From NCBI GenBank assembly GCA_015064955.1, contig SVRD01000006.1, positions 40,714-104,713 on the forward strand: a stretch of 64,000 nt of DNA, read 5' to 3'. Below are positions 3,570-31,667 of the stretch, piece after piece. The position numbers and the translations under genes were made by a program. The notes beneath the pieces are model-generated. The model was not told the origin of the DNA. It made no database searches and saw only the letters and a list, made by a program, of their open reading frames with translations. Position 1 is the stretch's first letter. The number at the start of each line of letters is the position of its first letter. This DNA is from Oscillospiraceae bacterium. GTDB lineage: Bacteria; Bacillota; Clostridia; Oscillospirales; CAG-382.

Positions 3570-4517
3570 TTAAAAATAATGATAAAGCAGAGATTTTCGT
3601 AAATTTTCTGTTCCGTCTGCGTATACTACCGTATACCAAACAGTAACTTGGATTATATGATCTTTTTCATCGTAATGGAAATAGCATGGCCCGTGAATAC
3701 TAAAGTCGATTACTTCCTTTACATATTCAAAATTTTTGTCGGCGTAATAATCCAAAACCACCGTTTTGGCACTTTCAAGATATTCATCGAGCGTATAATC
3801 AGGCAAATCCGGTATTTCATTGTCTTGAAAATCTTTGAATCGACAAACCGAACCGGTCGAATATTCAATCCAAACTTCACAGCTATTTATACATATTCCG
3901 TTCTCGTCATATTGCCTGAAACAGAATTGATGCCAACCTCCGCGAGTGTGAGTAAACTCTGGGTCAAGCTTAACTGTGCTCCAGTCAATATTTTTGCAAG
4001 TGTTTTCGCGAACCCAAGGTTCAGCGATCTTAAGAAGCTCTTCTTCTGTATAAGGTTCATCTCTTTTAGCGGTTCCCGGATCAGTGATAAACATGAAGTG
4101 CGGCGTTTCTGTGCCTCGTTCAAATCCGATTCTACCAAAGTCCTTAACACGATAATAATCCAGTATAAGATAGGTATGCGCATAGTGCATTGAATCTTCA
4201 TATACTGCATTTTCGAAGTTATAACCGAAATATGTTCCGCTTATAGTTTTGCCTTCCAGTTCTTCGTAATACAGAACTTCATTAAAATACCCCGGGTCGA
4301 TAACTGCGATTTCATTTATATCGTCATAATATCCGTAAGGAGGCGGGTATAGGATTTTTGCTACCACAAACTCGGGAAGATCGTTGCTTGGATAGGAAGA
4401 ATCTATGTTTGATAACTCGTCACTAACATTGGAAGATTGTATATCCGTAGTTGTATCAACCTGACACGATGACAAGATGATAATAGAAACAATCAACAAA
4501 CATATGATTTTTTTCAT
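3570..4517 (-). CDS. hypothetical lipoprotein
   Basis: 315 aa. Signal peptide MKKIICLLIVSIIILSSC has a lipobox (LSSC). The gene is AT-rich and I recognise no family. Confidence 0.6.
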   Translation of the reverse strand: MKKIICLLIVSIIILSSCQVDTTTDIQSSNVSDELSNIDSSYPSNDLPEFVVAKILYPPPYGYYDDINEIAVIDPGYFNEVLYYEELEGKTISGTYFGYNFENAVYEDSMHYAHTYLILDYYRVKDFGRIGFERGTETPHFMFITDPGTAKRDEPYTEEELLKIAEPWVRENTCKNIDWSTVKLDPEFTHTRGGWHQFCFRQYDENGICINSCEVWIEYSTGSVCRFKDFQDNEIPDLPDYTLDEYLESAKTVVLDYYADKNFEYVKEVIDFSIHGPCYFHYDEKDHIIQVTVWYTVVYADGTENLRKSLLYHYF

Positions 4518-4544: not shown

Positions 4545-4898
4545 TTATTGAATATGTTCGTTTTCATCTTCGTATATAAGCACAGCAACATCGGCAGCGT
4601 CGGAAGCCCATGAGTTTTGCGGAATATTAAGTTCGTAAGCCCTATCGAATTTGTCATCAGGTTCTTTTTCGCGCAAACGCAAAATATGCCCTTTTTCCTG
4701 AGCATCTGAAAAATTGATTACTTCGGGAATGTCTTCACGTGATAATACAAGCTGTTCCGGCGTAGGAAGCATTTGATCAGAACTGTCAAAAACAGCACTT
4801 TCGATATCGCCAACAGCATAAACTGAATTTGTGAAAATTGAAACTAAAAAACAAAACGATAAAGTGATTGACAACACTTCTTTTTTTGCATTACACAT
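4545..4898 (-). CDS. hypothetical small secreted protein
   Basis: 117 aa. N-terminal signal peptide ends in ...SVYA/VG. GGGGAGG RBS upstream. Likely co-transcribed with the downstream lipoprotein gene. Confidence 0.5.
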   Translation of the reverse strand: MCNAKKEVLSITLSFCFLVSIFTNSVYAVGDIESAVFDSSDQMLPTPEQLVLSREDIPEVINFSDAQEKGHILRLREKEPDDKFDRAYELNIPQNSWASDAADVAVLIYEDENEHIQ

Positions 4899-5084
4899 AA
4901 ATTATAAAGCCTCCCCGTTCTATTTGTCAATTCTTAAAAATAAAGATCGCGTATTCATCGGTCACGCCTCGCTATCTTTTTGGGGGTTCATTATATATAT
5001 GTCTGAAACATGGAAAATGTCTATAAAAAAATCAAAAAAATTCAAAAAAATTTTTTCAGAGAAAATATACACCCATAAAACCGA

Positions 5085-5112
5085 TTGCATTTTATCAAAA
5101 ATCGTGTATAAT
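5085..5112 (+). promoter_or_regulatory. sigma-70-type promoter for the GH35 gene
   Basis: TTGCAT (5085-5090), 16-nt spacer, TATAAT (5107-5112). It lies 22 nt upstream of the start at 5134. Confidence 0.6.
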
Positions 5113-5133
5113 TACGGACAAGAGGTGAAGCTT

Positions 5134-6867
5134 ATGACATTTGAAATAAACGGCAATCAATTCATACGTGACGGCAAACCGATAAAAATAATGTCGGGCG
5201 CGGTGCATTATTTCCGCAACCTGCCAGATACCTGGCGCGATATCTTTAAAAAACTGCGCGCATTGGGCTGTAACTGCGTCGAAACCTACTGTGCTTGGAA
5301 TATGCACGAAAAGCAAAAGGGAGTATTCGATTTTTCGGGAATGCTCGATATAAAACGCTTCCTGACCGTTGCGCAGGAGGAAGGTCTTATGGCGATAGTC
5401 CGCCCCGGTCCCTATATCTGCTCGGAATGGGAGTTCGGCGGTCTGCCGTGGTGGATCCAGACCGAGCCCGATATCGAAATCCGTTGCTCAAACGAAACCT
5501 ATATCAAATATTTCGACCGTTACCTCGACCGCCTTTTCGACGAGATCCGTTCGCTTCTTTCGATAAACGGCGGAAATATAATAATGCTTCAATGCGAAAA
5601 CGAATACGGCTATTACGGCGACGATAAAGAATACCTCGCTTATTTAAAAGAAGGATACATAAAGCGCGGTATGAACGTGCCGCTTTTCACGTCGGACGGA
5701 ACCAACAGAGCGGAAATGCTCGATGGCTGTATAGAGGGCGGTTTGGTAACGCTGAACTTCGGTTCGGACGTCGAAAACCGTTTCCGCGACCACGATGAAA
5801 TGTATCCGGATATGCCGAAAATGTGTATGGAAATGTGGTGCGGCTGGTTCGATGCTTGGGGCGATGAATATCACCATACCACCTCGGCGTCAGACTACGC
5901 AAAGACTGTCGGCGATATGCTTGCCCGCGGAAGCTTGAATATGTATATGTTCATCGGCGGAACGAATTTCGGCTTTATGAACGGCGCAAATCATCACGAA
6001 AAATTCCTGCCCGACGTTACAAGCTACGATTACGATGCTGTTCTTACCGAATGCGGAGATATCACCGAAAAGTATCTTGCACTGCGCGAGGTATTCGCGA
6101 AATACAACGATGAACCTCTCCCCGAAATACTCCAAAACCGCGTTAAAAAGGCATACGGCAAAATAAAGCTTTGCGAGAGTGCGGGCATTTTTGCAAATCT
6201 CGAAAAGCTTGCGCGCCCCGTAAAATCAAACGTTCCGCGCTGTATGGAGCACTACGGGATCGGATACGGCTATATCGCATACCGCACAAGACTGAACAGA
6301 GATTACGAAAACGCGCTTCTTTCCTTTGAATCAATGGGCGACCGCGCGCAGATCTATATAAACGAAAGCTTTATCGGCACCGTTTATATAAACGAGAACC
6401 TTTCTATAAGCTTCAGTGCCAAAGAGGGCGACGTGCTCACCGTGCTTTGCGAGAATATGGGCAGAGCCAATTTCGGAGCAAAGATGATGCGCAAAAAGGG
6501 AATAGACGGCAGATGCCTGCTCAATAACAAGATCCACTTTAATTGGACAGTATATCCGTTGCCGATGGACAACCTTGAAAATTTAGAGTTCCAAAGCGCT
6601 CAAACAAAAGAAAACACCGCCTTCTACCGCGGATATTTAGAGGTCGATGAGCCTTGCGACAGCTTTATCAAGCTCGATAACTTCAAAAAAGGCTTCGTAA
6701 CCGTCAACGGCTTCAATATCGGCAGATATTGGGAGATAGGACCTCAGCAAACTCTCTATCTTCCCGCATCGCTGTTAAAGCACGGGAAGAACGAAATCAT
6801 CGTTTTCGCGTCCGACGGATTGAAGGGCGAGCCCGAAATTGAATTTACCGACACTCCTATAATATAA
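5134..6867 (+). CDS. beta-galactosidase, glycoside hydrolase family 35
   Basis: The tracked ORF starts at 4831. The homologous region begins at the ATG at 5134 (MTFEINGNQF), preceded by an AGAGGTGAA RBS and a promoter. Contains GAVHYFR, RPGPYICSEWEFGGLP and QCENEYG motifs. Confidence 0.9.
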   Translation: MTFEINGNQFIRDGKPIKIMSGAVHYFRNLPDTWRDIFKKLRALGCNCVETYCAWNMHEKQKGVFDFSGMLDIKRFLTVAQEEGLMAIVRPGPYICSEWEFGGLPWWIQTEPDIEIRCSNETYIKYFDRYLDRLFDEIRSLLSINGGNIIMLQCENEYGYYGDDKEYLAYLKEGYIKRGMNVPLFTSDGTNRAEMLDGCIEGGLVTLNFGSDVENRFRDHDEMYPDMPKMCMEMWCGWFDAWGDEYHHTTSASDYAKTVGDMLARGSLNMYMFIGGTNFGFMNGANHHEKFLPDVTSYDYDAVLTECGDITEKYLALREVFAKYNDEPLPEILQNRVKKAYGKIKLCESAGIFANLEKLARPVKSNVPRCMEHYGIGYGYIAYRTRLNRDYENALLSFESMGDRAQIYINESFIGTVYINENLSISFSAKEGDVLTVLCENMGRANFGAKMMRKKGIDGRCLLNNKIHFNWTVYPLPMDNLENLEFQSAQTKENTAFYRGYLEVDEPCDSFIKLDNFKKGFVTVNGFNIGRYWEIGPQQTLYLPASLLKHGKNEIIVFASDGLKGEPEIEFTDTPII

Positions 6868-6891: not shown

Positions 6892-8340
6892 ATGAAATGC
6901 AGCTTTGCTAAAATGTCAACAAAGGGTACCTTTGAGGCGGTCTGGCCATACGGTACCGATATTTACGGCAGATTTTTATATCTCGAGCAGGGAAGCGAAA
7001 GAGTGCTTATTGCGGCATTCGATTTCAATGCGACCTTTCCGCGTGAGGCTGACCGCTGGAGAAGAGAGGTTGCCGCACGCACGGGTATTCCCGAAAAATC
7101 GATCTGGTATCACGAAATACAGATCCACGCCGCACCCTGCCACGAGCAGATCGCGGGCGAGGCGATGGACAGACTTATCGATAAATCGGTCGAAACGGTT
7201 CTCGATATGATATCTCGCGCCGAGGAATGCGAGGTTTTCGCCGCCGAATGCGATATGGGTACAGAGTATTCCTTCAACCGCGAGCAGTATATCGAGGGCT
7301 TGGGCGGCGTTACCGTATGGCGCGGTATGAAGTTTGATGAAACCGGCAGACCCTACACTCAGGATCCCGATATTATGCTTCTCCGCGGTTATAAGCCGAA
7401 TCTGCCGATATTCGACAAGCCGATTTATTTCGATAACAATGTCGACCAGATGGCATATATGTTTATGTTCAAGAATATGAAGGGCGAAACCATCGGCACC
7501 GTTTCGCGCTTTGCCGCCCACCCCGACGTCGGCGTATTGTTCGAGCATAGCGAAAACCCCGAAAGATCAAAAGAGTATCATTACGATTACGACTGGACGG
7601 GTTATCTTGCCGACGATATGGCGGAAATCTACGGCGGAATCGGTATGTATATCAACGGTCCCTGCGCCGACCTTGCCACCAAAAAGGATTGTTCGCCCGG
7701 TCACGGAACCTATGAAGCATCTGCTAATGAATGCAAACGACTTGCTAAAAGCATCGGTTCTCGCATCCGCGAGGTTTTCGATAAGAAAGCGACAAAGCTT
7801 AATCCTGACGAGGTGTTCAAGACCGAAACCTTTGAAATCGTTATGCCGATGAAGGAGGATATCCCCGATAATTACGCGGATATGCCGAAATGCTGGGACC
7901 GCTTCAACGAGCTCCAAAAGGAATTCGAAGCCGCTGTTGCCGAAAACAGAAATCCGTATGAGGTCAAGCGCATTATCGACGATCTCTGGCGTGCAGGCCA
8001 TATAAATCATATGTGCAGAGGTGCTAAATACGGCTTTACCGACGAGGAATTAAAGACTCATAAGGTCACCGTGTACGTTTCGGCGCTTCGCTTCTGCGGA
8101 TACCTTTTCGTCGGTGTTCCCGGCGAGAGCCTTGTTGATATGACGTTGTGGCTTCGCTCGCGATTTACGGGTACGAAAACGATTCCCGTCGATCAATGCG
8201 GCGGTTATTATAATTACGTTGCAACACCGCGCTCTATGGTGCTCGGCGGCTATACCTATTGGTCGAGCTGGATAGCTCAGGACGCGATTCCGAAATTCAA
8301 GCGTGATCTTGCGCCCAAGCTCGATGAATTTATGAAATAA
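6892..8340 (+). CDS. hypothetical protein, possibly a ceramidase-like hydrolase fold (weak)
   Basis: 482 aa with no signal peptide. It starts 24 nt after the GH35 stop, with an AGAGGT RBS. The HAAP and FAAHPDV segments loosely recall the neutral ceramidase N-terminal domain. This was not verified. Confidence 0.45.
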   Translation: MKCSFAKMSTKGTFEAVWPYGTDIYGRFLYLEQGSERVLIAAFDFNATFPREADRWRREVAARTGIPEKSIWYHEIQIHAAPCHEQIAGEAMDRLIDKSVETVLDMISRAEECEVFAAECDMGTEYSFNREQYIEGLGGVTVWRGMKFDETGRPYTQDPDIMLLRGYKPNLPIFDKPIYFDNNVDQMAYMFMFKNMKGETIGTVSRFAAHPDVGVLFEHSENPERSKEYHYDYDWTGYLADDMAEIYGGIGMYINGPCADLATKKDCSPGHGTYEASANECKRLAKSIGSRIREVFDKKATKLNPDEVFKTETFEIVMPMKEDIPDNYADMPKCWDRFNELQKEFEAAVAENRNPYEVKRIIDDLWRAGHINHMCRGAKYGFTDEELKTHKVTVYVSALRFCGYLFVGVPGESLVDMTLWLRSRFTGTKTIPVDQCGGYYNYVATPRSMVLGGYTYWSSWIAQDAIPKFKRDLAPKLDEFMK

Positions 8341-8348
8341 TTGAAAAT

Positions 8349-8386
8349 AAAAACCGTCTCGGATATAAAAAACGAGGCGGTTTTTG
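8349..8386 (+). terminator. rho-independent terminator
   Basis: Stem aaaccgtctcg/cgaggcggttt (one G-U pair) followed by a T-run. Confidence 0.7.
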
Positions 8387-8464: not shown

Positions 8465-8493
8465 TTGACAAATTGTTCAAAAAAATATATAAT
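8465..8493 (+). promoter_or_regulatory. consensus sigma-70 promoter of the dockerin protein gene
   Basis: TTGACA (8465-8470), 17-nt spacer, TATAAT (8488-8493). Confidence 0.7.
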
Positions 8494-8533: not shown

Positions 8534-8549
8534 ATTCATGGAGGTCACA

Positions 8550-11500
8550 ATGAAAGTACTTAAGAAATCGTTGTGTCTGCTGATCGTGGCGGTTATGCTT
8601 CTTTCGGTAGTTATCGGCACAATGGTGTCTGCCAACGCCGCTGCGTTTACCATACAGCGTCAGTGGGACTCAAAATGGAAAACCGTTTATGTCGGCGGCA
8701 GAACAATGTATAATACCGCGTGCGGTATATTCTCGATCGTAAATGCTGTCGGTTATCTTACCGGCAACGCTCCCGATGTATATTCTGTTGCCGTTTGGGC
8801 AAACAGCATCGGCGCGTTCAATACCGCTTCCTTCGGCGGTACCGACCGCAGCACTCTTTATCCCAGAATCCAAGCTAAATACGGCTCTACATACGGATTC
8901 ACGTGCGATGTAGCGGGCGGCTCGGGCTATTGGGCAACCGCAGCAAGCACGACTCTTAAAAACCATCTTAAAAACGGCGGTGTTGCAATCGGCCACGTTC
9001 CCGGTCACTTTATTGCGATTGTAGGATATGATGCATCGACCAACAAATTCCACGTTTACGACAGTGCACCCAGCACCTCGAGAGGCACTGCTACATACGG
9101 CGCAACCGGTTTGGGCGACTGCTGGGTTACCCAGTCGAGACTTTCCACCGGCAAGCTTGACCTCGACTGGTTCTGTCTCCTTTCTGCAACCAAGGCACCT
9201 GTTAATAAGGCTTCTCTGAGAGGTCTCCTCAACGGTGGCAACAAGGTTTCGCACAAGGATTACAATACTACCACTCTTCAGGAGCTCCGTGTCGCGTATG
9301 ATGCGGCTGTCGTTGTAAGCAACAACTCCTCCGCAACACAGAGTGAGGTTGACACTGCGGCTAAAAACCTTCTCAACGCACTTTTGAATACAAGTGCAAA
9401 GAACGTTTTGTCGGTTGGCAAGAGCTATACCTCTACCGGTTGCAGCAGAACCGATGATTACTCCGACGACGGCGCTGTTCTTACCGATGGCGCAAAGGGT
9501 AAGACCGACGGCGGCACTACTCAGTATGCGGGTTTCCAGAATACTGCCGAAATCATTATCGACCTCGGTTCTGTTCAGAAGGTAGATACCTTCACAGCAT
9601 ATATGGCAGCAGGCTCTTGGGGCATCGCTGCTCCCACCTCCGCTTGTCTCGAAGCATACGTTTCTACCGACAAAAATATCTACACCAAAGCGGCAAGCAC
9701 TTCTGTTGCTATCGTTACCAACGGCACCGGTACTTACGATGAAACCTGGTCCAATTACAGAATGACTGCAACCTCCGATAAACAACATGATGCAAGATAC
9801 GTAAAGATAGTTATTAAGAACTACGATGGTTCTACCTCTCAACACATCTGGCTTGATGAAGTCGAGGTTTCCTGCTATACCGGCGCACATATCACCGATG
9901 CGATTTATATTTCGGGCATCAACTCAAAGGTTGCCGCAGGCGAAACCAAGATCTTTACCTCCGCGTTCAATAACGGCGTGATCTCCTCTTCTTATGATGC
10001 GGCAAATATCGCTTGGACTATGAACGTTGTTGCAAAGAAGAATTCCGACGGCTCTTACACAGTCAAGAGTGTAGCGGCAGGTGACGGCACCGCTGCTTCG
10101 AGCTATACTCTCGCGTCCGATGAAATTCTTATCGCGGCTCACTCTTGGGAGGATAACGTAGACGATCCCATTGGCGACAGCGCTGATAACTTCAAAAAAC
10201 TCGGCGCGTTGCAGGTTGGCGACAGCCTTTACCTCAGCGGTATCAATACCGACTATTCCTTTATCAATATCGGTGCATTCGTTTCTACCGATACAAAGAA
10301 CGGCTCGGGCACTGTCGGCGGCTCTGACGTAGAACAGCTTGTCGGCGGCAAGACCTTCTGGCTCACTCATTACAATGACAGCGTTGTTGAAGGCGCAGGC
10401 GTTATCATTACCGAATCATACTCCGGTGCGGTTTGGTGGTTGCACGTTGCGTTTGCTCCCACCTCGATCCCCAACGTATATGAGATCACCGCGATCTCCG
10501 ACGGAACCGATATTGGCGACGGCGAAGCACTTTCGATCCCCGCAGGCGGCTTTGTTTATGCGGTGAACTACGGTAACGACTATCCCTCCATCAATGCTGA
10601 CGGAAGCGGCACTGACTATACCTCCGAAAAATGTACCGCCGCTATTATCGACGCTCTTACCTGGAAGGTTGGCGACAAGCTCAAGATAAGCGGCATCGAT
10701 ACCGTGAACAAGACTATTCCCACCTCTACCGCAGGTAAAAAGTGGTATGACGATTCGTACGTTTGCACCGCAAACTACATTATGTATGATCCCAGCGCTA
10801 ACGAAAACCCCGACGTTTCTTATGACACCACAGTATATGATAATATGCTTTGGCTTACCCACTTCAACGATCTCTATAAAGAAGGCGCGGGCGCAATCGT
10901 AACCGATCCTACAATAACCGGAACCCAGTGGAACGATTACTTCGCGTTCACTCCCGTTGAAGGCACAAATATGTATGAAATTACCGCTATTTCCCGCGGT
11001 ATGCACGTTGGTACGTCTACCTTACCTGCACTTCCCGAAGGCGGCTTCATCTATTCGCTCAACCCCGGCAACGACTATCCCACACTTAACCAGACCGGAG
11101 ATACCGCCGGAAAATTCCCCGACCTTCCCGACTATACCTCCGAAAACTGCTTTACTATGGTTTCGATGGTAGAGGATTGGCAGATCGGCGACAGATTTGT
11201 GTTCGGCAACCTTGACCTCAACGGCAAAACTATTCCCACCACTACCGCTTCTAAGGAATGGTACGAGGAAGGCTATGTTTGTACCGCAACCTTCCAGAAG
11301 GTAGTTGAGGAAGAAATTCACGAGCACACTCCCGGTACCGAAGCAAGCTGTACTACCGATCAGATCTGCACCGAATGCGGCGAAGTGCTTGTCGAAGCTT
11401 TGGGACACACCCCGGGCGAAGAAGCAAACTGCACAAGATATCAGACCTGTACCGTTTGCGGCGAGATCCTTGCAAACTCCACCGGACACAAAGCAGGTGA

Positions 11501-11789
11501 GTGGGTAACTCTCGATGACGGCAGCAAGGAACAGCGTTGCACCGTTTGTAACGAGCTTCTTGATTCCGAAGCGGCTCCTGCTCCCAGCGGTTTGCTTGGC
11601 GACATTAACCTTGACGGTGCTATCGACCAGTATGACTATATTCTCGTAAAACGTCACTACTTCGAAACCCGTTATCTCACCGATGACGAAATGACCCGCG
11701 CCGACGTTAACCTCGACGGTGCGATCAATCAGTACGACTACATTTTGATCAAGCGCCACTACTTTGGCACATACGTGATTGAACAGTAA
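8550..11789 (+). CDS. secreted mosaic protein: C39-like cysteine peptidase, discoidin-like domain, three repeated modules, Cys-rich triple repeat, type I dockerin
   Basis: The likely start is the ATG at 8550 (MKVLKK), 5 nt after GGAGG; the tracked ATG at 8538 overlaps the RBS. Signal peptide ends ...SANA/AA. The NTACGIFS Cys and GHFIAIVGYD His resemble the peptidase C39_2 family. The region near WLDEVEV is F5/8-type-C-like. The C-terminal duplicated segments DINLDGAIDQYDY and DVNLDGAINQYDY form a dockerin. Confidence 0.8.
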   Translation: MKVLKKSLCLLIVAVMLLSVVIGTMVSANAAAFTIQRQWDSKWKTVYVGGRTMYNTACGIFSIVNAVGYLTGNAPDVYSVAVWANSIGAFNTASFGGTDRSTLYPRIQAKYGSTYGFTCDVAGGSGYWATAASTTLKNHLKNGGVAIGHVPGHFIAIVGYDASTNKFHVYDSAPSTSRGTATYGATGLGDCWVTQSRLSTGKLDLDWFCLLSATKAPVNKASLRGLLNGGNKVSHKDYNTTTLQELRVAYDAAVVVSNNSSATQSEVDTAAKNLLNALLNTSAKNVLSVGKSYTSTGCSRTDDYSDDGAVLTDGAKGKTDGGTTQYAGFQNTAEIIIDLGSVQKVDTFTAYMAAGSWGIAAPTSACLEAYVSTDKNIYTKAASTSVAIVTNGTGTYDETWSNYRMTATSDKQHDARYVKIVIKNYDGSTSQHIWLDEVEVSCYTGAHITDAIYISGINSKVAAGETKIFTSAFNNGVISSSYDAANIAWTMNVVAKKNSDGSYTVKSVAAGDGTAASSYTLASDEILIAAHSWEDNVDDPIGDSADNFKKLGALQVGDSLYLSGINTDYSFINIGAFVSTDTKNGSGTVGGSDVEQLVGGKTFWLTHYNDSVVEGAGVIITESYSGAVWWLHVAFAPTSIPNVYEITAISDGTDIGDGEALSIPAGGFVYAVNYGNDYPSINADGSGTDYTSEKCTAAIIDALTWKVGDKLKISGIDTVNKTIPTSTAGKKWYDDSYVCTANYIMYDPSANENPDVSYDTTVYDNMLWLTHFNDLYKEGAGAIVTDPTITGTQWNDYFAFTPVEGTNMYEITAISRGMHVGTSTLPALPEGGFIYSLNPGNDYPTLNQTGDTAGKFPDLPDYTSENCFTMVSMVEDWQIGDRFVFGNLDLNGKTIPTTTASKEWYEEGYVCTATFQKVVEEEIHEHTPGTEASCTTDQICTECGEVLVEALGHTPGEEANCTRYQTCTVCGEILANSTGHKAGEWVTLDDGSKEQRCTVCNELLDSEAAPAPSGLLGDINLDGAIDQYDYILVKRHYFETRYLTDDEMTRADVNLDGAINQYDYILIKRHYFGTYVIEQ
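10356..11294 (+). repeat. tandem coding repeat, two modules of roughly 140-150 aa inside the dockerin protein
   Basis: FWLTHYNDSVVEGAGVII...YEITAISDG...GGFVYAVNYGNDYP...YVCTANY is repeated as LWLTHFNDLYKEGAGAIV...YEITAISRG...GGFIYSLNPGNDYP...YVCTATF. A more diverged third copy lies upstream, at roughly 9900-10300. Confidence 0.75.
11316..11561 (+). repeat. three Cys-rich repeats, GH(T/K)(P/A)GxEx...C(T)xCxE(x)L
   Basis: HTPGTEASCTTDQICTECGEVL, then HTPGEEANCTRYQTCTVCGEIL, then HKAGEWVTLDDGSKEQRCTVCNELL. Confidence 0.7.
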
Positions 11790-15408: not shown

Positions 15409-17205
15409 CTAATCAAGCGCGTTTATGAAGTCTTCGTTTTCGTCATAGGAATAACAACTGCGAAGTTCTTCCTTGGGGGTACCGACAATAACGGTCTTTA
15501 CAATCGAAACTGTGGAGTGATTTTCGCCGTTGCTTTGCTCTTTGTAAACCCCGATCTTGCAGTCATTGCTGATACCGTTTATCTTTTGAAGCCTATCACA
15601 GCCGTCAAAAGAACCGTAGGAAATCAATTTCACACTTTCGGGAAGGGTTATTTCGGTTATATTGCTTCCGTCAAAATAGAGATATTTAAACGCCTCACGA
15701 GCAAGCTCGTTTCTTGTGTTTTCGTCGCTTACCGCGTCCAAAAACTTAACAGCATCGTTATAGCAAGCCTCCTCATCGTAGCCGTAAACCTCAAGTATCG
15801 CAGAGAGTCTGTCCTTTTCATCGAATACAAGATACTTTTCGAGCTCGTAATAACCGATTCCGTTGCTGTCGATCTTTTCTGCGAAAAATGCTTCAAATAC
15901 CTTCGCATCGCGTTCGGGATTTGCTCCGATAGTCATTCCGAAGCGTGTTTCGGTTTTTTCGATATCCTCGGCATTCGTAATCATTTCTTTGATCGCTTTC
16001 ATCGATTCAAAGGTGAGATAACTCGGAACGTTTCTTTTGGGCTTTGCGGCATTTAGCCCCCAACAGAAATTGATTTCGACAACCGTGTCGCCGTTGGGAG
16101 CCTTTTCGGGAATGATCAAGTGGATATCTCCGGAATAATCCTTGTCAACTCTTATCTCGCTTACAACACAAGTGCCGTCGCCGTTGCTTTTGTAAACGAA
16201 ATTATAAGGCTGTTCGCCAAATGTTTCGGTTTTTACCTCTTTCCATTTCATACCGTCGGCATCCGCGGCGCAGGCAACAAGCGCTGCAATACAGAGCAAT
16301 ATGCAGATAAGATTAACGAAAAATTTGGGTTTTTTCCAATAAAGAGCGTGCTTAATACGTTTCTTTGCGTTAGAACTGCTTTCGCTGAACGCTATCGGGC
16401 TTGGGGCGGGAAAGCGTTTGTTTGAAGCAAAGGAAAGCAGTGCGAGTGTATAATTCTTTTTCATCACTTCGTCTCCTTTAGTTCGTAACACCTTTTCGTC
16501 ACAGCTCATTTCCATATCAAGACTCATAAGTCTGAATGCGATCCAACAAAGCGGATTGAACCAATGAACCGCGAGAATAAGGAATGCCATTGGCTTGATA
16601 ATATGGTCAAGCCTTCTGATGTGACAACGCTCGTGGAGAAGTATCTGCTCGAGCGTGTTTTTGTCGAGCCCGTATGGAATATATATTCTGGGCTTGAAGT
16701 AGCCGAGCGCAAAGGGTGTGCTTACCTTTTCCGACATAAAGACGTTTCCTTCATATCGTATCGCGTTCGACATCATTATTTTTAGTTTGAAATATGAAAA
16801 CAGAGTATAAATCAGTGCGACAGTCGTTCCGACAAACCATATCACCATAACAACGGTGTTGAAAATGTCAATAAAATCAGCTTTCTTGACAAATTCAATA
16901 CTCGCACCGCCGCTGACAAAGTCAGGGTCATAAACGGGAACAGAGGGTGAAGAAGTATTACCGTTGATGATAATATCTCCTCCGACGTTGGGTAAGCTCG
17001 GAGCTTTCGGAGCGACAAACGAGAAAATGCTGAATATCGCTCTGAAGCTGATCGGACAGCAAAGTCTGAATCCGACAACGATCCACAGCAGGTAAGAATA
17101 TTTCCTCGGAGCCTTGCTCAAAAGAGCGCGTAAAAGGATAACGGCAATAATTACAACGCCGCCTTTTATGCTCATTTCGAGTATAGTGTTGAAAAAATCA
17201 ACCAT
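15409..17205 (-). CDS. BlaR1/MecR1-type M56 peptidase sensor with a non-PBP extracellular domain
   Basis: 598 aa. N-terminal TM helices and the HERCHIRRLDH zinc motif. After the last TM there is a roughly 300-aa extracellular region with BspA-type LRR-like segments (ITEITLPESVKLISYGSFDGC). No penicillin-binding SxxK motif was seen. Confidence 0.75.
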   Translation of the reverse strand: MVDFFNTILEMSIKGGVVIIAVILLRALLSKAPRKYSYLLWIVVGFRLCCPISFRAIFSIFSFVAPKAPSLPNVGGDIIINGNTSSPSVPVYDPDFVSGGASIEFVKKADFIDIFNTVVMVIWFVGTTVALIYTLFSYFKLKIMMSNAIRYEGNVFMSEKVSTPFALGYFKPRIYIPYGLDKNTLEQILLHERCHIRRLDHIIKPMAFLILAVHWFNPLCWIAFRLMSLDMEMSCDEKVLRTKGDEVMKKNYTLALLSFASNKRFPAPSPIAFSESSSNAKKRIKHALYWKKPKFFVNLICILLCIAALVACAADADGMKWKEVKTETFGEQPYNFVYKSNGDGTCVVSEIRVDKDYSGDIHLIIPEKAPNGDTVVEINFCWGLNAAKPKRNVPSYLTFESMKAIKEMITNAEDIEKTETRFGMTIGANPERDAKVFEAFFAEKIDSNGIGYYELEKYLVFDEKDRLSAILEVYGYDEEACYNDAVKFLDAVSDENTRNELAREAFKYLYFDGSNITEITLPESVKLISYGSFDGCDRLQKINGISNDCKIGVYKEQSNGENHSTVSIVKTVIVGTPKEELRSCYSYDENEDFINALD

Positions 17206-17569
17206 TTTCTTCCTCTTTGTGTTCGTCGATAAGCTTCTTCAGCTCGTCTGCTTCTTTCTGTGAAAGAGTCTTTCCGCCGAGAAATGCAACCAAAAACTTA
17301 GGCAAAGAGCCCTCGAATGTATGGTCGACAAAATGCTCGCTTGCGTAGGTTTGCACCATGTCGCGCGGAATTGTTGCAGAGACTATCGTGTTTTCGTTAC
17401 GGGCGAACCCCTTTTCGCAAAGCTTTTTGAGTGTGGTATAGGTCGTGGGCTTCTTCCAACCCAGCTTATCCGCGCAAAGCTCAACAAGCTTACCCGAGGG
17501 AAGCGGTTCGTTGTCCCATATAATGCTCATAAATCTGTAATCGCTTTCGCAAAGCTTTAAGTTTTCCAT
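17198..17569 (-). CDS. BlaI/MecI/CopY family transcriptional repressor
   Basis: 123 aa winged-helix protein (SEADYRFMSIIW-like N-terminus). Its stop overlaps the M56 gene start by 8 nt. Confidence 0.85.
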   Translation of the reverse strand: MENLKLCESDYRFMSIIWDNEPLPSGKLVELCADKLGWKKPTTYTTLKKLCEKGFARNENTIVSATIPRDMVQTYASEHFVDHTFEGSLPKFLVAFLGGKTLSQKEADELKKLIDEHKEEENG

Positions 17570-17791: not shown

Positions 17792-20587
17792 ATGAAAAAA
17801 ATCATTTCTTTCCTCATGACTGCTTTGCTTATGAGTATATCCGCCATTTCGTTTATATCGGTCGAAGCTAATAGCGATTCAGCCCCTTCTGTCATTCCCG
17901 CAATCCGTGAATGGCAGGGAAGCAACGGCAGATTTGTACCGGATCAAAATACCGTTCTTGTGAATTTGCCATACTCTTCCTCGGTAGAAAAGATCAAGAC
18001 ATTCTTTTCCGAGATGGTTTCGCTTGATCTCGAAATCGATAATACCGAAAGCGGAAGCAATGAAATAGTATTTGCTCTCGATTCCTCTCTATATAAAAAG
18101 GTCGGCAACGAGGGCTATACCATCGAAGCGACCGAGTCTGCTATAAAAATCTCCGCGCCGACAGAAATCGGCTTGCTTTACGGCGGCATTTCTGTTGTTC
18201 AAAGCGTCACAGCCGACGGCTTTTTTCCTTGCGGCAGCGCAGTCGACTATCCCGCATTTCCCGTTCGTTCGGGTATGATAGACGTCGGCAGAGCCTGGAT
18301 ACCGCTCGATTATGTCAATGAAATCACTCGTTATATGGCTTACTATAAGCTTAACGAGGTCCATCTTCATATAAACGACGACGGTGAAAACGGTTATTCG
18401 GGATTCCGTCTTGAAAGCGATGTCAAAGGCCTTGCGTCCGAGGACGGCTATTATACAAAGGACGAATACCGCGCTTACCAAAAGGAAATGCTCGAATACG
18501 GTATATCGGTCGTAACCGAAATAGATACTCCGTTCCATTCAAGCTGCTATGCAAAGGCGGAAAATCCGCCCCCTTATCTCCCCGGAAATAAGCGCTGTCT
18601 CGACGTTTCAAAACCCGAAACACTCGAGTTTGTGAAAAACCTTTTTGCCGAGTATATGACGGGCGACGATCCTGTTTTTGTCGGCAAGGTCGTGCATATC
18701 GGAACCGACGAATACCCGCGCGAATACGCCGAGGAAATGCGCGCCTATACAAACGCACTTATCGAATATGTTAATTCCTTGGGCTATACCCCTCGCTTTT
18801 GGGGCGGTCTCGGACCCGACGGCTTCCAAGGCACCACCCCTATGTCCGAAAACGCCCAAATGAACTATTGGGACAACGGCATTTCGGGCTTGAAGGAAAC
18901 GCTTGACAGCAATTACGACTTTGTCAATACCGTAAATGCGATTCTTTATACCGTTCCGACAACGAACTATTCGTTCCCCGATTACTTTGATCTAAAGACA
19001 CTTTATAATATGTGGCAGGTAAATATGTTCTCGTTGGACGGGAGCGCGAAATGCGAGCCTGACGATGAACGCCTGCTCGGAGCCTGCTTTGCACTCTGGA
19101 ACGATCTTCACACCGCGTATAAGGGCGTAACCCGCTTTGATATATTCGATAGATTACGCGGAATGGTTTGCCTTATATCCGAAAAAACCTGGTGCGGTCT
19201 CGATACAGCAAGCGTCGGCTATGAAAGCTTCAAATCACGCTACGATAAGCTGTCTCTGCGCGCGGGTGATGCCGACCCGGGTCGGCATTCGCTGTCCGAT
19301 GAAGGTATCACAGTTGATTTTGAGTCCGACTTTTCGGAAATCACAAACGGCGGTAAGGTCGAAAACGGAAAATATATTCTTGACGGTGAATCATATATTT
19401 CGCTCGAGAATTTGCTTTCTGCTTCTTCCGTCGGATTCCCAAATACGCTTGAATTTGAAATTTGCCTTGATGAAGAAACAGATTTTCCGATCTTTTCGGG
19501 TGACGGCGTGCAGATTTTTGCCAATGCCGACGGAAAGGGCAATTTCGGCTTCAAGACCGAGGTTTATACATTTACTTATGATTATAAGCTTCCTATCGGC
19601 GAAAATGTTAAGATACGTTTGAGCAGCGATTTGAAAACAACCTATCTAACCGTAAACGATGCACTGTCATATTCTCCCCAAAACAGTCTTAACCCGCAAA
19701 ATACTAAGCTTTCTACTCTTACAATCCCGATAAGCGAAATCGGCAAGGGGATAAAGGGAACTATCGACAATATCAAAATCACACCTACTGCCGTAAACCC
19801 CGCGACTATTCTTGCCAACTATAATATTGCATTGAACTGCAAAACCTCGGTTTCGGGATTGGAGGTAAATGACGGCAGATTCACGTCGTCGCTTGCAGTT
19901 GACGGCGACGAAGCAACGCGCCTTTCGTTTGCAAGGGACAAGGACGAGCAATGGCTTCTTCTCGATCTCGGTGATGTTTACGATATCGCAAGAATAGAGA
20001 TAGTATTCTTCGAGCACGTTTCCGAATACGAGATTTACGTTTCGGAGGACGGCGCGCAATTTACCAAGGTTTACAGCCTTTCAAACGGAGCAGAGCAGGT
20101 AAAACAAACCGATAATATCGTTCTCGAGAATTCGGCAAAGGGACGATATATAAAATACGTTCAGCTCAAACGCTGGTATATGCCCGATTGGAATACCTAT
20201 TACAGCGGCGGCATTTCGGAGTTTCGCGCATATTCGTTCAATGAGCAAAAGTATCATACTTTACTCAAGGATGCGCTTTCTTTCCTTCAGAATACCGAAA
20301 AGAACGACCCTCGACGCGCGACAGTAAAGGAAATGATTTTCGAGCTCGAAAACCTTCTTGCCGAAAAGGACGTGTTTATAGCAAACGCAGAGTTTTATTA
20401 TAACGAACTGCAAACCGCTATGAATACACCGATCATAGAAACCGAATCCTCTGTTACGGAAGTATCGGAATCGGCAAAACCCGAAAATAACACCGGTAAT
20501 AAGTGGCTTATTGCAACTCTCGTTGCCGCGGCTGTTGCCGTTATCGGCACTGCAGTCGTTTTTATTAAAAAGAAAAGGAAAAAGTGA
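17792..20587 (+). CDS. beta-N-acetylhexosaminidase (GH20) with a discoidin-like domain and C-terminal membrane anchor
   Basis: 931 aa with a signal peptide. GH20 core has LHINDDG and HIGTDEY motifs. F5/8-type-C-like region (LAVDGDEATRLSFA...WLLLDLG). C-terminal TM helix followed by KKKRKK. Confidence 0.85.
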   Translation: MKKIISFLMTALLMSISAISFISVEANSDSAPSVIPAIREWQGSNGRFVPDQNTVLVNLPYSSSVEKIKTFFSEMVSLDLEIDNTESGSNEIVFALDSSLYKKVGNEGYTIEATESAIKISAPTEIGLLYGGISVVQSVTADGFFPCGSAVDYPAFPVRSGMIDVGRAWIPLDYVNEITRYMAYYKLNEVHLHINDDGENGYSGFRLESDVKGLASEDGYYTKDEYRAYQKEMLEYGISVVTEIDTPFHSSCYAKAENPPPYLPGNKRCLDVSKPETLEFVKNLFAEYMTGDDPVFVGKVVHIGTDEYPREYAEEMRAYTNALIEYVNSLGYTPRFWGGLGPDGFQGTTPMSENAQMNYWDNGISGLKETLDSNYDFVNTVNAILYTVPTTNYSFPDYFDLKTLYNMWQVNMFSLDGSAKCEPDDERLLGACFALWNDLHTAYKGVTRFDIFDRLRGMVCLISEKTWCGLDTASVGYESFKSRYDKLSLRAGDADPGRHSLSDEGITVDFESDFSEITNGGKVENGKYILDGESYISLENLLSASSVGFPNTLEFEICLDEETDFPIFSGDGVQIFANADGKGNFGFKTEVYTFTYDYKLPIGENVKIRLSSDLKTTYLTVNDALSYSPQNSLNPQNTKLSTLTIPISEIGKGIKGTIDNIKITPTAVNPATILANYNIALNCKTSVSGLEVNDGRFTSSLAVDGDEATRLSFARDKDEQWLLLDLGDVYDIARIEIVFFEHVSEYEIYVSEDGAQFTKVYSLSNGAEQVKQTDNIVLENSAKGRYIKYVQLKRWYMPDWNTYYSGGISEFRAYSFNEQKYHTLLKDALSFLQNTEKNDPRRATVKEMIFELENLLAEKDVFIANAEFYYNELQTAMNTPIIETESSVTEVSESAKPENNTGNKWLIATLVAAAVAVIGTAVVFIKKKRKK

Positions 20588-20976: not shown

Positions 20977-21006
20977 AAAAAAGTGACAGTAAATGTCACT
21001 TTTTTA
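20977..21006. terminator. bidirectional terminator hairpin
   Basis: Stem aagtgaca/tgtcactt is flanked by A and T runs. It overlaps the stop of the convergent GHL10 gene. Confidence 0.7.
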
Positions 21007-22267
21007 ATTCAATACAAAAGGCTTTGTGTTCTTCTTCCGTATATTTATTGACTTCTGCCGTGAGCGGATCATAAAAGGATGAATATGTAAAAATACAGAC
21101 ACCCTCGCAATCAGAATTCTTGATCATCTGCAGTGAACGCAAGAGAATGTCCTTGTTGTCGCGCCATTCATATTTCCCACCGCTACCCGCATATTCGTCG
21201 GGCTCGCCCATTGAACCCGCTTCGCATTTTGCCGCAGAAAGCCCGATGATCATTTGTATTCTTTCGTTCTTCAAAGCGCTTATCCAGTCGGAAAGCACCT
21301 TTTCAAAGGGACAGGTCGAATTTTCAAAGCCGTAATAAAGCTGGGGCATTATATAATCAATATATCCGTCGCTCGAAAGCCACTTATATATATCAACGTA
21401 CCAGCCGTTTTCCAAAGAATAGATATTTCCCGCAGGTGCGATACCGAACTTCTTGTTTTCGTAGCAGTGCACCGCCTTATATAATGCAGTGATCGTTCGG
21501 TTTATGCTCTCACGCCTGAACTCACCCAAATCGTTGTATTCGGATTCATTAAATTCGTTTGAATCATCAAATTCAAATTCGGTCGGATAAAAGTAATCAT
21601 CGAGGTGGATACCGTCGAAATCGTATTTGTCGAGTATTTCCTTCGCTCCGTCAACGATCAAGCCTGTTGCCTCGCTGTACGATGGGTCGAGATAAAGCAA
21701 GCCGTCGCTTCCGAGCTCTATCCGCTTTCCGATACCCTCGTTATACCATTCGTAAAGTATTCCTTTGCCGTGCAGCAAAAGCTCACTTTGCTTGCAAAGC
21801 CGAAAAGGATTTATCCAGGCGTGCACCGATATCGAATGTTTTTTTGCAATCTCGAGAAAAATCCCAACCGCATCGTATTCGATATTTCCGCCGTAAGTCC
21901 CCGCGATGTATTTCGATGTCGGGTAAATCTCGCTTTCGTACATACTGTCGCCGTTTGGGCGTATCTGCAAAAACACCGTGTTAAAGCCGTCGCACACAAG
22001 GTTGTCCATCATATTTTCGATTAGATTTCGGTATTCGCCGATATCTCTCTGCTTGTTGCCGTCTCGAAATATCGGGTGCATATCAAATTGTGATATCCAG
22101 ATACCTTTTGTGAATTGTTTTCCGTTTTCAACCAAGGAAGCCGAAAGGTCAAGATAAACAACTCTGTATTCAGTTTCGTGAGCGCTTATTTGTGCTTCAG
22201 GATTTATTGATTCGGGACTGCAGGAGCATAAGAATATAAAGCTTATAATCAGTATTATTGTCTTCAT
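20996..22267 (-). CDS. glycoside hydrolase-like family 10 (GHL10) lipoprotein
   Basis: 423 aa. Lipobox IFLCSC. GIWISQFDM, NTVFLQIRPNGDSMY and HAWINPFR are typical of the GHL10/YngK family. Confidence 0.75.
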   Translation of the reverse strand: MKTIILIISFIFLCSCSPESINPEAQISAHETEYRVVYLDLSASLVENGKQFTKGIWISQFDMHPIFRDGNKQRDIGEYRNLIENMMDNLVCDGFNTVFLQIRPNGDSMYESEIYPTSKYIAGTYGGNIEYDAVGIFLEIAKKHSISVHAWINPFRLCKQSELLLHGKGILYEWYNEGIGKRIELGSDGLLYLDPSYSEATGLIVDGAKEILDKYDFDGIHLDDYFYPTEFEFDDSNEFNESEYNDLGEFRRESINRTITALYKAVHCYENKKFGIAPAGNIYSLENGWYVDIYKWLSSDGYIDYIMPQLYYGFENSTCPFEKVLSDWISALKNERIQMIIGLSAAKCEAGSMGEPDEYAGSGGKYEWRDNKDILLRSLQMIKNSDCEGVCIFTYSSFYDPLTAEVNKYTEEEHKAFCIELKK

Positions 22268-23562: not shown

Positions 23563-23637
23563 TGCTGGTGTGGCGCAGGGGTAGCGCAATTGATTCGTAA
23601 TCAATAGGCCGAGGGTTCAAATCCCTCCACCAGCTCC
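23563..23637 (+). tRNA. tRNA-Thr (anticodon CGT)
   Basis: Manual cloverleaf: acceptor GCTGGTG/CACCAGC, D arm GCGC-AGGGGTA-GCGC, anticodon arm ATTGA-TTCGTAA-TCAAT, T arm GAGGG-TTCAAAT-CCCTC, encoded CCA. 75 nt. Confidence 0.9.
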
Positions 23638-23642
23638 ATAAC

Positions 23643-24850: not shown

Positions 24851-24937
24851 GCCGGAATGATGGAATTGGCAGACGTGCTGGACTCAAAATCCAGTGGTAG
24901 CGATACCGTGCGGGTTCGACCCCCGCTTCCGGCACCA
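24851..24937 (+). tRNA. tRNA-Leu (anticodon CAA), class II with long variable arm
   Basis: Acceptor GCCGGAA/TTCCGGC, anticodon arm CTGGA-CTCAAAA-TCCAG, variable arm GGTAGCGATACC, T arm GCGGG-TTCGACC-CCCGC, encoded CCA. 87 nt. Confidence 0.9.
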
Positions 24938-25335: not shown

Positions 25336-26376
25336 ATGAATTTTACATTTAATGATTATATACTTGATGTGGATATTGAAAAAATGAAAAGTGTTATTCT
25401 GAAAAACTACAAATGCCAATGTGCAATTTGCAAAGCTTTTAGAGAATATGCGGACACTTTAGATGAAAATATAACAGCCAAATTGATTGCCTTGGGTGTT
25501 AATATAGAACGTCCTGATGAGGTTTTTGACATAGGCGAGGATGAAAACCAAAATGTTTGCTATTCCGGGTGGTGGAATATTTACGGGAAGATTCTAACAA
25601 AATCCCAAACACCTTACCAAATATCCGACGGCTTTGAGCTAACCTTCTGTGACGATAGCCAATATGCTCCGCGGTGGTTTCAAGGTAGTGACTATTTTCA
25701 AATGCGTTTTTTAATTCGCAAAAGCCAGCTAAAAAGAATTGGGAAGAAATATCAAGTAGGCGACAAAACAGTATTTTCTTACCATATAGGCGATAATGCT
25801 TGTGCAAATATGTATAATCTTATTGGCGGAAAGATTTTCAAGATTTATTCCGATAGTATTATAAAAAACGATGCTCAAATAAAGTGCCATAATGTGGAGA
25901 TTTTCATAGAAAACGAATCCCGTTATCAAAAGCTTTCACTTTCTGTATCGCGGGATTTAGATACCTGCTTTGATGGTATAGACCGAATGGCGCTAACACT
26001 TGATAGCGTTAACATTGACTCCACCGAAGCAGAGCTATTGCTACAAGATGATATCATTTCTTGCTCGATGGGAAAAATCAAATGTATTAAAGTTTTTGAA
26101 AGTACAATCGAGGGTGAAAACGACAAGGTTGTTTATGATTCTCACATCGTCATCGAGGACGACTTAGGGAAGAAACTTATCTTTCGTGCAGAGCCCGACG
26201 GTGAAGAAGTGATGACGGTTTTCACTGACATAGATGATAATGACGTAGAAAAATATCTTCGCGTTTCGGATACTTGGTTTGTAAATGACGATTCGGCTTT
26301 TTATGAAAACAACGAGATAGACGGCGTGAAGAATTGTTACAAAACCGAAACGAAACTTAGAGTTTTTGTGATGTAG
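25336..26376 (+). CDS. hypothetical protein (island cargo 1)
   Basis: 346 aa. AAAGGATAAG RBS. Acidic, with no signal peptide, TM helix or catalytic motif that I recognise. N-terminal CQCAIC cluster. Markedly AT-rich. Confidence 0.6.
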   Translation: MNFTFNDYILDVDIEKMKSVILKNYKCQCAICKAFREYADTLDENITAKLIALGVNIERPDEVFDIGEDENQNVCYSGWWNIYGKILTKSQTPYQISDGFELTFCDDSQYAPRWFQGSDYFQMRFLIRKSQLKRIGKKYQVGDKTVFSYHIGDNACANMYNLIGGKIFKIYSDSIIKNDAQIKCHNVEIFIENESRYQKLSLSVSRDLDTCFDGIDRMALTLDSVNIDSTEAELLLQDDIISCSMGKIKCIKVFESTIEGENDKVVYDSHIVIEDDLGKKLIFRAEPDGEEVMTVFTDIDDNDVEKYLRVSDTWFVNDDSAFYENNEIDGVKNCYKTETKLRVFVM

Positions 26377-31556: not shown

Positions 31557-31667
31557 CATCAAGAAAATGGCGTAGAGTGCGCACGCGTAATTGTTTTCAA
31601 ATTGTCCTTATTTTGTTAAAATTTGTGCGGTATAATTTATTTGATATTGTGCAATGGAGGTTTACTT

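Follow-up and report, generated by a model that had tools for sequence, protein, structure and literature searches.

Cohesin–dockerin systems have mostly been studied as plant-fibre or starch machines. The gene described here lies at positions 8550 to 11789 on the forward strand of a 64,000-nucleotide stretch of contig SVRD01000006.1 from an Oscillospiraceae bacterium (the whole stretch is called the window below), and encodes a secreted dockerin protein with a papain-fold head and three copies of a module, here named A, B and C. Judging from this dockerin cargo and the set of proteins related to it, the substrate would be polymers of the bacterial wall. An earlier note on this DNA had considered a peptidase an atypical passenger for a dockerin, which is contradicted by the literature on ruminococci. 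Around half of the dockerin proteins of Ruminococcus flavefaciens are not carbohydrate-active enzymes, and peptidases are among them; one, RflaF_05439, carries tandem NlpC/P60-like papain-fold modules and an X-dockerin (PMC3573020). Ruminococcus bromii has dockerin-bearing peptidases together with a 'cysteine protease' (PMC4611034). Among the scaffoldins of Ruminococcus champanellensis, ScaK joins a GH25 lysozyme to a cohesin, and ScaH combines SGNH, cohesin and dockerin domains; a paper on that species bears the title 'Lysozyme activity of the R. champanellensis cellulosome' (Moraïs et al. 2016). The general notion that cohesin–dockerin systems can have wall-lytic activity is therefore an established one.

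The window protein resembles RflaF_05439 and the R. bromii enzyme in that a papain-superfamily hydrolase, its function inferred, is brought to the surface by a dockerin, but its single head is C39_2-like rather than NlpC/P60 and is followed by a long train of putative binding modules. With ScaK and ScaH the likeness lies in having wall-active or esterase domains within a cohesin–dockerin system, and the module family does pair with GH25, SGNH, cohesin and dockerin domains. There, however, the lytic domain rides a plant-fibre cellulosome, whereas the anchors of the module family are single-cohesin transmembrane (TM) proteins that bear the module.

The head itself is closest to Peptidase_C39_2 (PF13529), a family that the PhaLP database tallies among phage lytic proteins as the endopeptidase class 'PET_C39', with 260 entries (PMC8310338), that also appears among listed lysin domains (PMC10541714), and whose members have been described as peptidases that stand free, are decorated and differ from the C39 fused to transporters (PMC10318531). 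A near-threshold match, the Gln/Cys/His/Asp set, the papain fold and a secreted, decorated single domain are shared with that family. The window head differs in falling 1 bit under the gathering threshold and in having no relatives in the phage sequences searched, and its fusion to a discoidin domain, new modules and a dockerin is undescribed in the C39_2 literature consulted. Gram-positive autolysins and endolysins offer a further comparison. In the window protein, too, putative binding modules come after a catalytic head, and in the related protein P0184 the module occupies the wall-binding position of a catalytic–binding–catalytic layout, yet the module is unrelated by sequence or Foldseek to SH3b, LysM, CW_7, SLH or choline-binding repeats, and attachment through a dockerin sets the protein apart. 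What is new is the A/B/C module superfamily; there is, moreover, an indication that wall- or glycan-active dockerin enzymes and membrane anchors share this module with no plant-fibre enzymes alongside.

A proposed docked enzyme with a papain-fold head

We suggest, at roughly even odds (a probability of about 0.5), that the gene encodes a cohesin-docked papain-fold wall peptidase or amidase with new targeting modules. The enzyme would be secreted by the Sec route and held on the surface of its producer by binding of its C-terminal type I dockerin to a cohesin, the likely partners being single-cohesin membrane-anchored proteins which, in related genomes, bear the same module and a discoidin domain. 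A triad of Cys58, His153 and Asp171, with Gln38 as the likely oxyanion-hole residue, would cleave an amide bond, most likely in the peptide stem or cross-bridge of peptidoglycan or in another peptide linked to the bacterial cell wall. The discoidin domain and modules A, B and C would keep the enzyme attached to the target surface through a glycan or wall polymer found there, and a FIVAR-like helix and three Cys/His repeats, probably binding zinc, would serve as spacers. The target wall may be the producer's own, as in autolysis or remodelling, or that of other bacteria, as in scavenging or antagonism.

One set of indications comes from the head. PF13529 matches residues 34-173 with a score of 23.0 bits, the cut-off being 24 (E 1.3e-4; the alignment spans positions 4-143 of the 143 in the profile), and is precomputed for many homologues of the window protein. 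In an alignment of 16 sequences of 53-67% identity, Q38, C58 (within NTACGIFS) and H153 (within GHFIAIVGYD) show no variation, and D171 reaches at least 90% conservation. The AlphaFold2 (AF2) model of the domain has a predicted local distance difference test score (pLDDT) of 95.2; in it Cys58 opens a long central helix (28-41 in the model), His153 opens a strand (123-131) and Asp171 lies just past the next strand, which is the arrangement of a canonical papain. The earlier note had proposed a papain-fold, C39-like domain with a Cys/His pair, and the pair is indeed conserved and sits at canonical positions in the model. When the model was compared with the PDB by Foldseek, only clan-CA enzymes were recovered. 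The best matches were 22oc ('P210 CD lyase', E 5.5e-6), the phytochelatin-synthase-like Alr0975 (3e-5) and the C39 domain of PCAT1 (2e-4, template modelling score 0.52-0.54), the latter two with a Foldseek probability of 1.0; deubiquitinases, GtgE, AvrRpt2 and cathepsin L were matched further down. A sequence and profile search of the PDB with the N-terminal domain gave chance-level matches only. The entry 22oc dates from 2026, and neither its function nor its source was found in the literature; if it is the catalytic domain of a lysin, it would bear directly on what the head does.

The relatives of the head provide the link to cell walls. Among the 120 best matches (50-79% identity), head paralogues are fused to SH3_3 (about 30), InlB-B repeats (20), SLH (12) and GBS_Bsp-like repeats (9), usually with a dockerin, and SH3_3, SLH and GBS_Bsp-like repeats are wall-associated modules. 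Close relatives of the window protein even replace the C39-like head by another one: P0010 and P0044 carry CHAP and an SH3-like segment in its place and keep the FIVAR-like linker, discoidin domain, module(s) and dockerin, the Cys repeats being kept in P0044 only. Because of these wall-associated paralogues, the CHAP swap and the occurrence of PF13529 in phage lysins, we infer that the substrate of the head is probably a cell-wall component.

The remaining domains are summarized in Table 1, in which residues are numbered from the MKV start. The order is signal peptide, papain-fold head, FIVAR-like linker, discoidin-like domain, modules A, B and C, Cys/His repeats and type I dockerin, in keeping with the secreted mosaic dockerin protein that had been proposed. 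Only the dockerin passes its Pfam threshold; C39_2, discoidin and FIVAR are sub-threshold in the window protein, though they are listed for homologues.

Table 1. Features of the dockerin gene and its product, with positions in the window
Feature	Residues	Positions	Strand	Basis or detail
Sigma-70-type promoter, TTGACA-17-TATAAT		8465..8493	+	12/12 consensus matches
Shine-Dalgarno sequence, GGAGG		8540..8544	+	5 nt ahead of ATG 8550
Sec signal peptide (…VSANA/AAF)	1-30	8550..8639	+	inferred from the n-h-c pattern of the sequence
Papain-fold (clan CA) C39_2-like cysteine hydrolase domain	31-216	8640..9197	+	Pfam, conservation, AF2, Foldseek
Putative catalytic Q38	38	8661-8663	+	conservation and model
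Putative catalytic C58	58	8721-8723	+	conservation and model
Putative catalytic H153	153	9006-9008	+	conservation and model
Putative catalytic D171	171	9060-9062	+	conservation and model
FIVAR-like helical linker	217-285	9198..9404	+	Pfam FIVAR, 20.7 bits vs 29.2 cut-off
Discoidin domain (F5/8 type C, CBM32-like)	286-440	9405..9869	+	PF00754, 22.1 bits vs 28.2, residues 315-428
Module A	441-595	9870..10334	+	hhalign vs B/C family; diverged member of the module superfamily
Module B (about 150 aa)	596-746	10335..10787	+	44% identical to C; AF2 pLDDT 97.7
Module C	760-918	10827..11303	+	second clear copy
Three Cys/His repeats, units of 27-28 aa	926-1007	11325..11570	+	H-x7-C-x5-C-x2-C twice, H-x15-C-x2-C once
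Type I dockerin, Ca-binding repeats DINLDGAIDQYDY and DVNLDGAINQYDY	1016-1070	11595..11759	+	Pfam PF00404

Dockerin_1 scores 42 bits against a gathering score of 22.9 (E 1e-10), the two DxNxDGxIDxxDY repeats form the duplicated calcium-binding F-hand segment, and dockerins in the PDB match at E 2e-8 to 1e-5; the type I assignment made earlier is thereby confirmed. For the discoidin-like domain that had been placed after the head, PF00754 or PF22633 is listed over the same region for many homologues. The linker has a local match to NCBIfam ZmpB at residues 217-280, and FIVAR (PF07554) is precomputed in the homologues P0005 and P0031.

The three Cys-rich repeats recognized previously are real; two units have a His and three Cys, and the third has a His and two Cys. 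By phmmer they align with residues 893-976 of an 'IgA protease' in the PDB (9qa6_A, E 4.5e-4). In that enzyme, from Thomasclavelia ramosa, the Cys/His zinc-linked beta-sheet domains CTD2 and CTD4 have been described as an uncharacterised metal-binding 'periscope' spacer fold (2025 PNAS, PMC12415215). The window protein has three short HxxGxE…CxxC units only, the third of them one Cys short, and zinc is putative. By analogy, the repeats could be a zinc-stabilised spacer. They are absent from the nearest orthologues (about 65% identical, about 1000 aa) and are therefore dispensable, and the same H…C…CxxC units are found in relatives of about 710 aa (P0011, P0025 and P0044).

At the level of the gene, there is a single long open reading frame (ORF) on the + strand (8538/8550..11789). 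Read from ATG 8550, the start given in the earlier note, to the stop at 11789, the product has 1079 aa (MKVLKK...), not the 1080 given earlier. A hairpin followed by a T-run, read from the sequence at about 8352-8385, lies after the upstream gene and ahead of the promoter, and together with the perfect promoter and the GGAGG it makes the dockerin gene its own transcription unit, starting at 8550. A start at ATG 8538 (MEVTMKV…), as in the JGI metagenome gene call, was rejected because the positions of GGAGG and promoter favour 8550; the database protein of 1083 aa is probably four residues too long.

A new, mobile module family

The three modules form a superfamily that is new and mobile. B and C are 44% identical over 148 aa, and the bounds given earlier for the two best-conserved copies (10356-10778 and 10848-11294) fall within about 20 nt of those found here. 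The earlier note had counted three copies. Two of them are plain, and the third, A, is recognizable at the profile level only: by BLAST it shares with B just the 13-residue word VGDxLxxSGI(N/D)T, whereas hhalign relates it to the B/C family with a probability of 96.7% (E 3.8e-10; 96.0% and E 4e-9 in a second run) over 114-115 columns. Subtype A is also present in some 50 further proteins, where it always comes after a discoidin domain; its conserved residues differ from those of B and C (…IFTP.FG.IT…ANH.WT.NV…LASDEILIAAH.WE…VGD…LSGID), and it is without the C-terminal PTSTxxxWYDDxYVCTA segment. On this profile evidence A is homologous, a diverged paralogue that makes up a separate subtype.

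The signature that had been read from the window, WLTH(Y/F)N..EGAG..YEI..GGF(V/I)Y..N.GNDYP..YVCTA, forms the core that is conserved across an alignment of 53 family members, in which T, H, E, N and D residues are at least 90% conserved, Tyr142 is invariant and two Cys could form a disulfide. A full-library HMMER search with B and C collected 142 clusters (50% identity level), of which 119 had an E value <=1e-10, and the module-bearing proteins are labelled 'hypothetical protein' in every source that names them. The module had been left unassigned in the earlier note, and so it stays: B and C have no match in Pfam (local or newer precomputed), in NCBIfam or among PDB sequences and profiles, A has no PDB sequence match, and the AF2 model of B has no Foldseek match in the PDB (best E 0.36, template modelling score <=0.28) or in BFVD. 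These profile and Foldseek searches thus placed the module in no characterised family of carbohydrate-binding modules (CBMs), wall-binding domains or enzymes.

The company the module keeps is informative. Across 64 longer members, the Pfam domains found with it are discoidin (26), dockerin (26), SGNH (5), cohesin (5), MucBP (5), NAGPA (4), CHAP (4), LRR_5 (3) and GH25 (3), with M23, GDPD, GH20, GH3 and GHL10 once each. With CHAP it is combined, for example, as CHAP–module–GH25–dockerin (P0184), CHAP–module–dockerin (P0152) and CHAP–discoidin–A–B/C–dockerin (P0135). Other dockerin proteins have the layouts M23–module–Flg_new×3–dockerin (P0202), GDPD–discoidin–A–module–dockerin (P0126), SGNH…A–module×2–dockerin (P0124) and GHL10…module×2–dockerin (P0123), and NAGPA–module×4 is seen in P0121. 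Finally, P0128, P0148 and P0140 read signal peptide–(discoidin)–module–cohesin–stalk–TM, and in these single-cohesin anchors the module sits where the CBM sits in classical scaffoldins. No plant-polysaccharide enzyme was seen beside the module; the co-occurring glycosidases, GH20, GH3, GHL10 and GH25, are not cellulases or xylanases.

Short members are tethered to the cell as well. Nine have a signal peptide, the module, a long acidic Ser/Glu/Pro stalk and a TM helix ending in KKKK or KSRK (P0129, P0134, P0145, P0146, P0162, P0163, P0171, P0174 and P0182), and five are lipoproteins with an N-terminal lipobox Cys, a stalk and then the module (P0157, P0173, P0175, P0186 and P0199). A stand-alone class of module plus dockerin, guessed from protein lengths, was discarded when its members proved to be module, acidic stalk and TM anchor.

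Because of the tandem arrays, the tethers, the position between two catalytic domains and the placement in scaffoldin-like anchors, we favour a binding role for the module, and its catalytic partners make bacterial wall polymers (peptidoglycan, teichoic acids, wall polysaccharides) the favoured target. One could go further, although only tentatively, and see in A/B/C a new fold family of surface-displayed binding modules that marks a cohesin–dockerin system dismantling the walls of other bacteria, rather than plant fibre, in uncultured Clostridia of the herbivore hindgut. In such a 'murein/teichoic-acid-osome', C39-like, CHAP, M23, GH25, GDPD, NAGPA, SGNH and GH20 enzymes would be docked on module-bearing, membrane-anchored single-cohesin proteins. 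The display on a cohesin scaffold, as in a cellulosome or amylosome, that was proposed previously is in keeping with the dockerin. No feature ties the protein to cellulose or starch, the family context of CHAP, GH25, M23, GDPD, NAGPA, SH3_3, SLH and GBS_Bsp-like domains suggesting polymers of the bacterial wall instead.

The module is experimentally tractable, with clear domain boundaries and a confident model. Were its ligand a particular wall polymer or glycan, the module would represent a new family of targeting domains useful for lysin engineering, would provide an annotation for about 140 clusters of 'hypothetical protein', and would be a marker of a bacteriolytic or necromass-feeding lifestyle in gut Clostridia. 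Should the ligand be a dietary or host glycan, the module would found a new CBM family.

At one locus (L030 5909-8572), a stand-alone module gene (P0263) lies next to genes for an SGNH esterase and for an Amidase_3 and SH3_3 wall amidase, the latter on the opposite strand, with a GDPD gene 4 kb upstream. This neighbourhood is a weak hint of a wall-related setting, and the pattern is absent at two other module loci.

Alternative readings

Several observations weigh against a docked wall hydrolase. The functional assignment is drawn wholly from domain co-occurrence, and the C39_2 score is just under the Pfam gathering score. The nearest solved folds of the head (phytochelatin-synthase-like, PCAT1 C39, deubiquitinases, 'P210 CD lyase') include no CHAP or NlpC/P60 wall hydrolase. 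No relatives of the head or the module were found in viral contigs (pattern search and tblastn) or in 50,697 phage genomes (tblastn). The neighbourhoods of the three stand-alone module genes are mostly housekeeping, and Pfam annotation of the 64-kb window revealed no cohesin gene and no scaffoldin; cohesin-bearing proteins with the same module do occur among related metagenomic proteins, and the proposed partner would be of that kind. An enzymatic role of the module would likewise be compatible with its strongly conserved polar residues (H, E, N, D, Y). Finally, the discoidin and FIVAR domains and the nearby GH35, GH20 and GHL10 genes are equally compatible with foraging on host or diet glycans.

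The last point leads to the rival that survives best, which we consider possible but clearly the less probable explanation: a surface-docked protease for glycoproteins or proteins, such as host mucin or IgA, plant or fungal wall proteins or feed protein, whose discoidin domain and modules bind the glycans of the substrate. Its role would be to feed the bacterium or to open the way for the glycosidases of neighbouring genes. Host-glycan enzymes typically carry discoidin/CBM32-like and FIVAR-like modules, and the local ZmpB match, the Cys/His repeats resembling those of a gut IgA protease, the co-occurrence of MucBP and LRR_5 with the module, and nearest solved folds that are protein- or peptide-cleaving enzymes all agree with such a protease, as do genes for GH35, GH20 with discoidin and GHL10 less than 12 kb away. 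These glycosidase genes, however, are separate transcription units among housekeeping genes. A protease for glycoproteins also sits poorly with the swap to CHAP in an otherwise identical chassis, with a module placed between CHAP and GH25 and elsewhere fused to M23, and with head paralogues joined to SH3_3, SLH and GBS_Bsp-like repeats, all of which speak for the docked wall peptidase or amidase.

A second alternative concerns the modules rather than the head, and we regard it as improbable. A, B and C might not bind glycans at all but be small enzymes, or protein–protein adaptors comparable to the 'X-module' of cohesin–dockerin complexes, in which case specificity would lie elsewhere in the protein. 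Such a role would explain the unusually strong conservation of T, H, E, N and D residues with the invariant Tyr142, the many stand-alone surface-anchored copies, the presence in cohesin-bearing anchors and the lack of structural similarity to any solved CBM in the PDB by Foldseek. Tandem arrays of up to four copies (P0121) and a position between two catalytic domains, on the other hand, are typical of binding modules and not of enzymes, the partners are many unrelated catalytic domains, and the loss in subtype A of the residues conserved in B and C is what one would expect if ligand sites diverge.

It is very improbable that the head is a classical C39 maturation protease (PF03412), the kind that cleaves double-glycine leaders off bacteriocins or quorum peptides, and this reading was rejected on architecture. 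In its favour are the Pfam clan relationship of C39_2 and the resemblance by Foldseek to the peptidase domain of PCAT1. The head, however, is secreted and stands alone, with no ABC exporter in the gene or its neighbourhood, it comes with a Sec signal peptide, a dockerin and four modules of glycan type, and C39_2 is described as distinct from transporter-fused C39 (PMC10318531).

Relatives and chromosomal setting

An identical protein is present on 15 contigs of JGI/ENA metagenomes, and orthologues of 62-69% identity are found in metagenome-assembled genomes (MAGs) of 'Eubacteriales/Clostridia bacterium', whose isolate names YK and TS suggest yak and Tibetan sheep. More distant relatives come from roe deer, sheep, rabbit and horse gut MAGs. 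Gene order around the locus is preserved in two of these MAGs, with 80-88% identity between flanking genes, and the dockerin gene is only 69% identical and without the Cys-rich repeats; the dockerin protein is a surface protein that evolves fast, much faster than its neighbours, and its place on the chromosome is stable. The gene directly upstream in the window (6892-8340, +) encodes a 482-aa protein with no Pfam match and no signal peptide, 88% identical and syntenic in two related MAGs. At two MAG loci (L006 1604-6236 and L009 5947-9912), two paralogous genes are arranged in tandem; dockerin proteins that carry module A, and two copies of the C39-like head, are encoded there, which indicates local gene duplication.

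The window is otherwise an ordinary piece of chromosome, with genes for aromatic amino-acid synthesis, GH35, flavodiiron/rubredoxin, GH20, glnA, a PASTA kinase, priA, dnaG/sigA and pheST, and with no second dockerin gene in its 64 kb. The GH35 beta-galactosidase (4831-6867, +), the GH20 hexosaminidase with discoidin domains (17792-20587, +) and the GHL10 gene (20996-22267, -) are separate units; elsewhere, GH20 and GHL10 are also fused to the module. A conventional secreted wall endopeptidase of G5 and Peptidase_M23 domains, without a dockerin, is encoded at 31623-32786 (+). Between a ZIP transporter gene and the GH20 gene there is a pair consisting of a BlaR1-like M56 sensor protease and a BlaI/Penicillinase_R repressor (15409-17569, -). 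Two ORFs of 315 and 346 aa (3570-4517, -, and 25336-26376, +) have no Pfam match. The region from 24 to 28 kb is AT-richer (GC 0.38-0.40), and tRNA-Thr and tRNA-Leu genes lie at 23564-23638 and 24851-24937.

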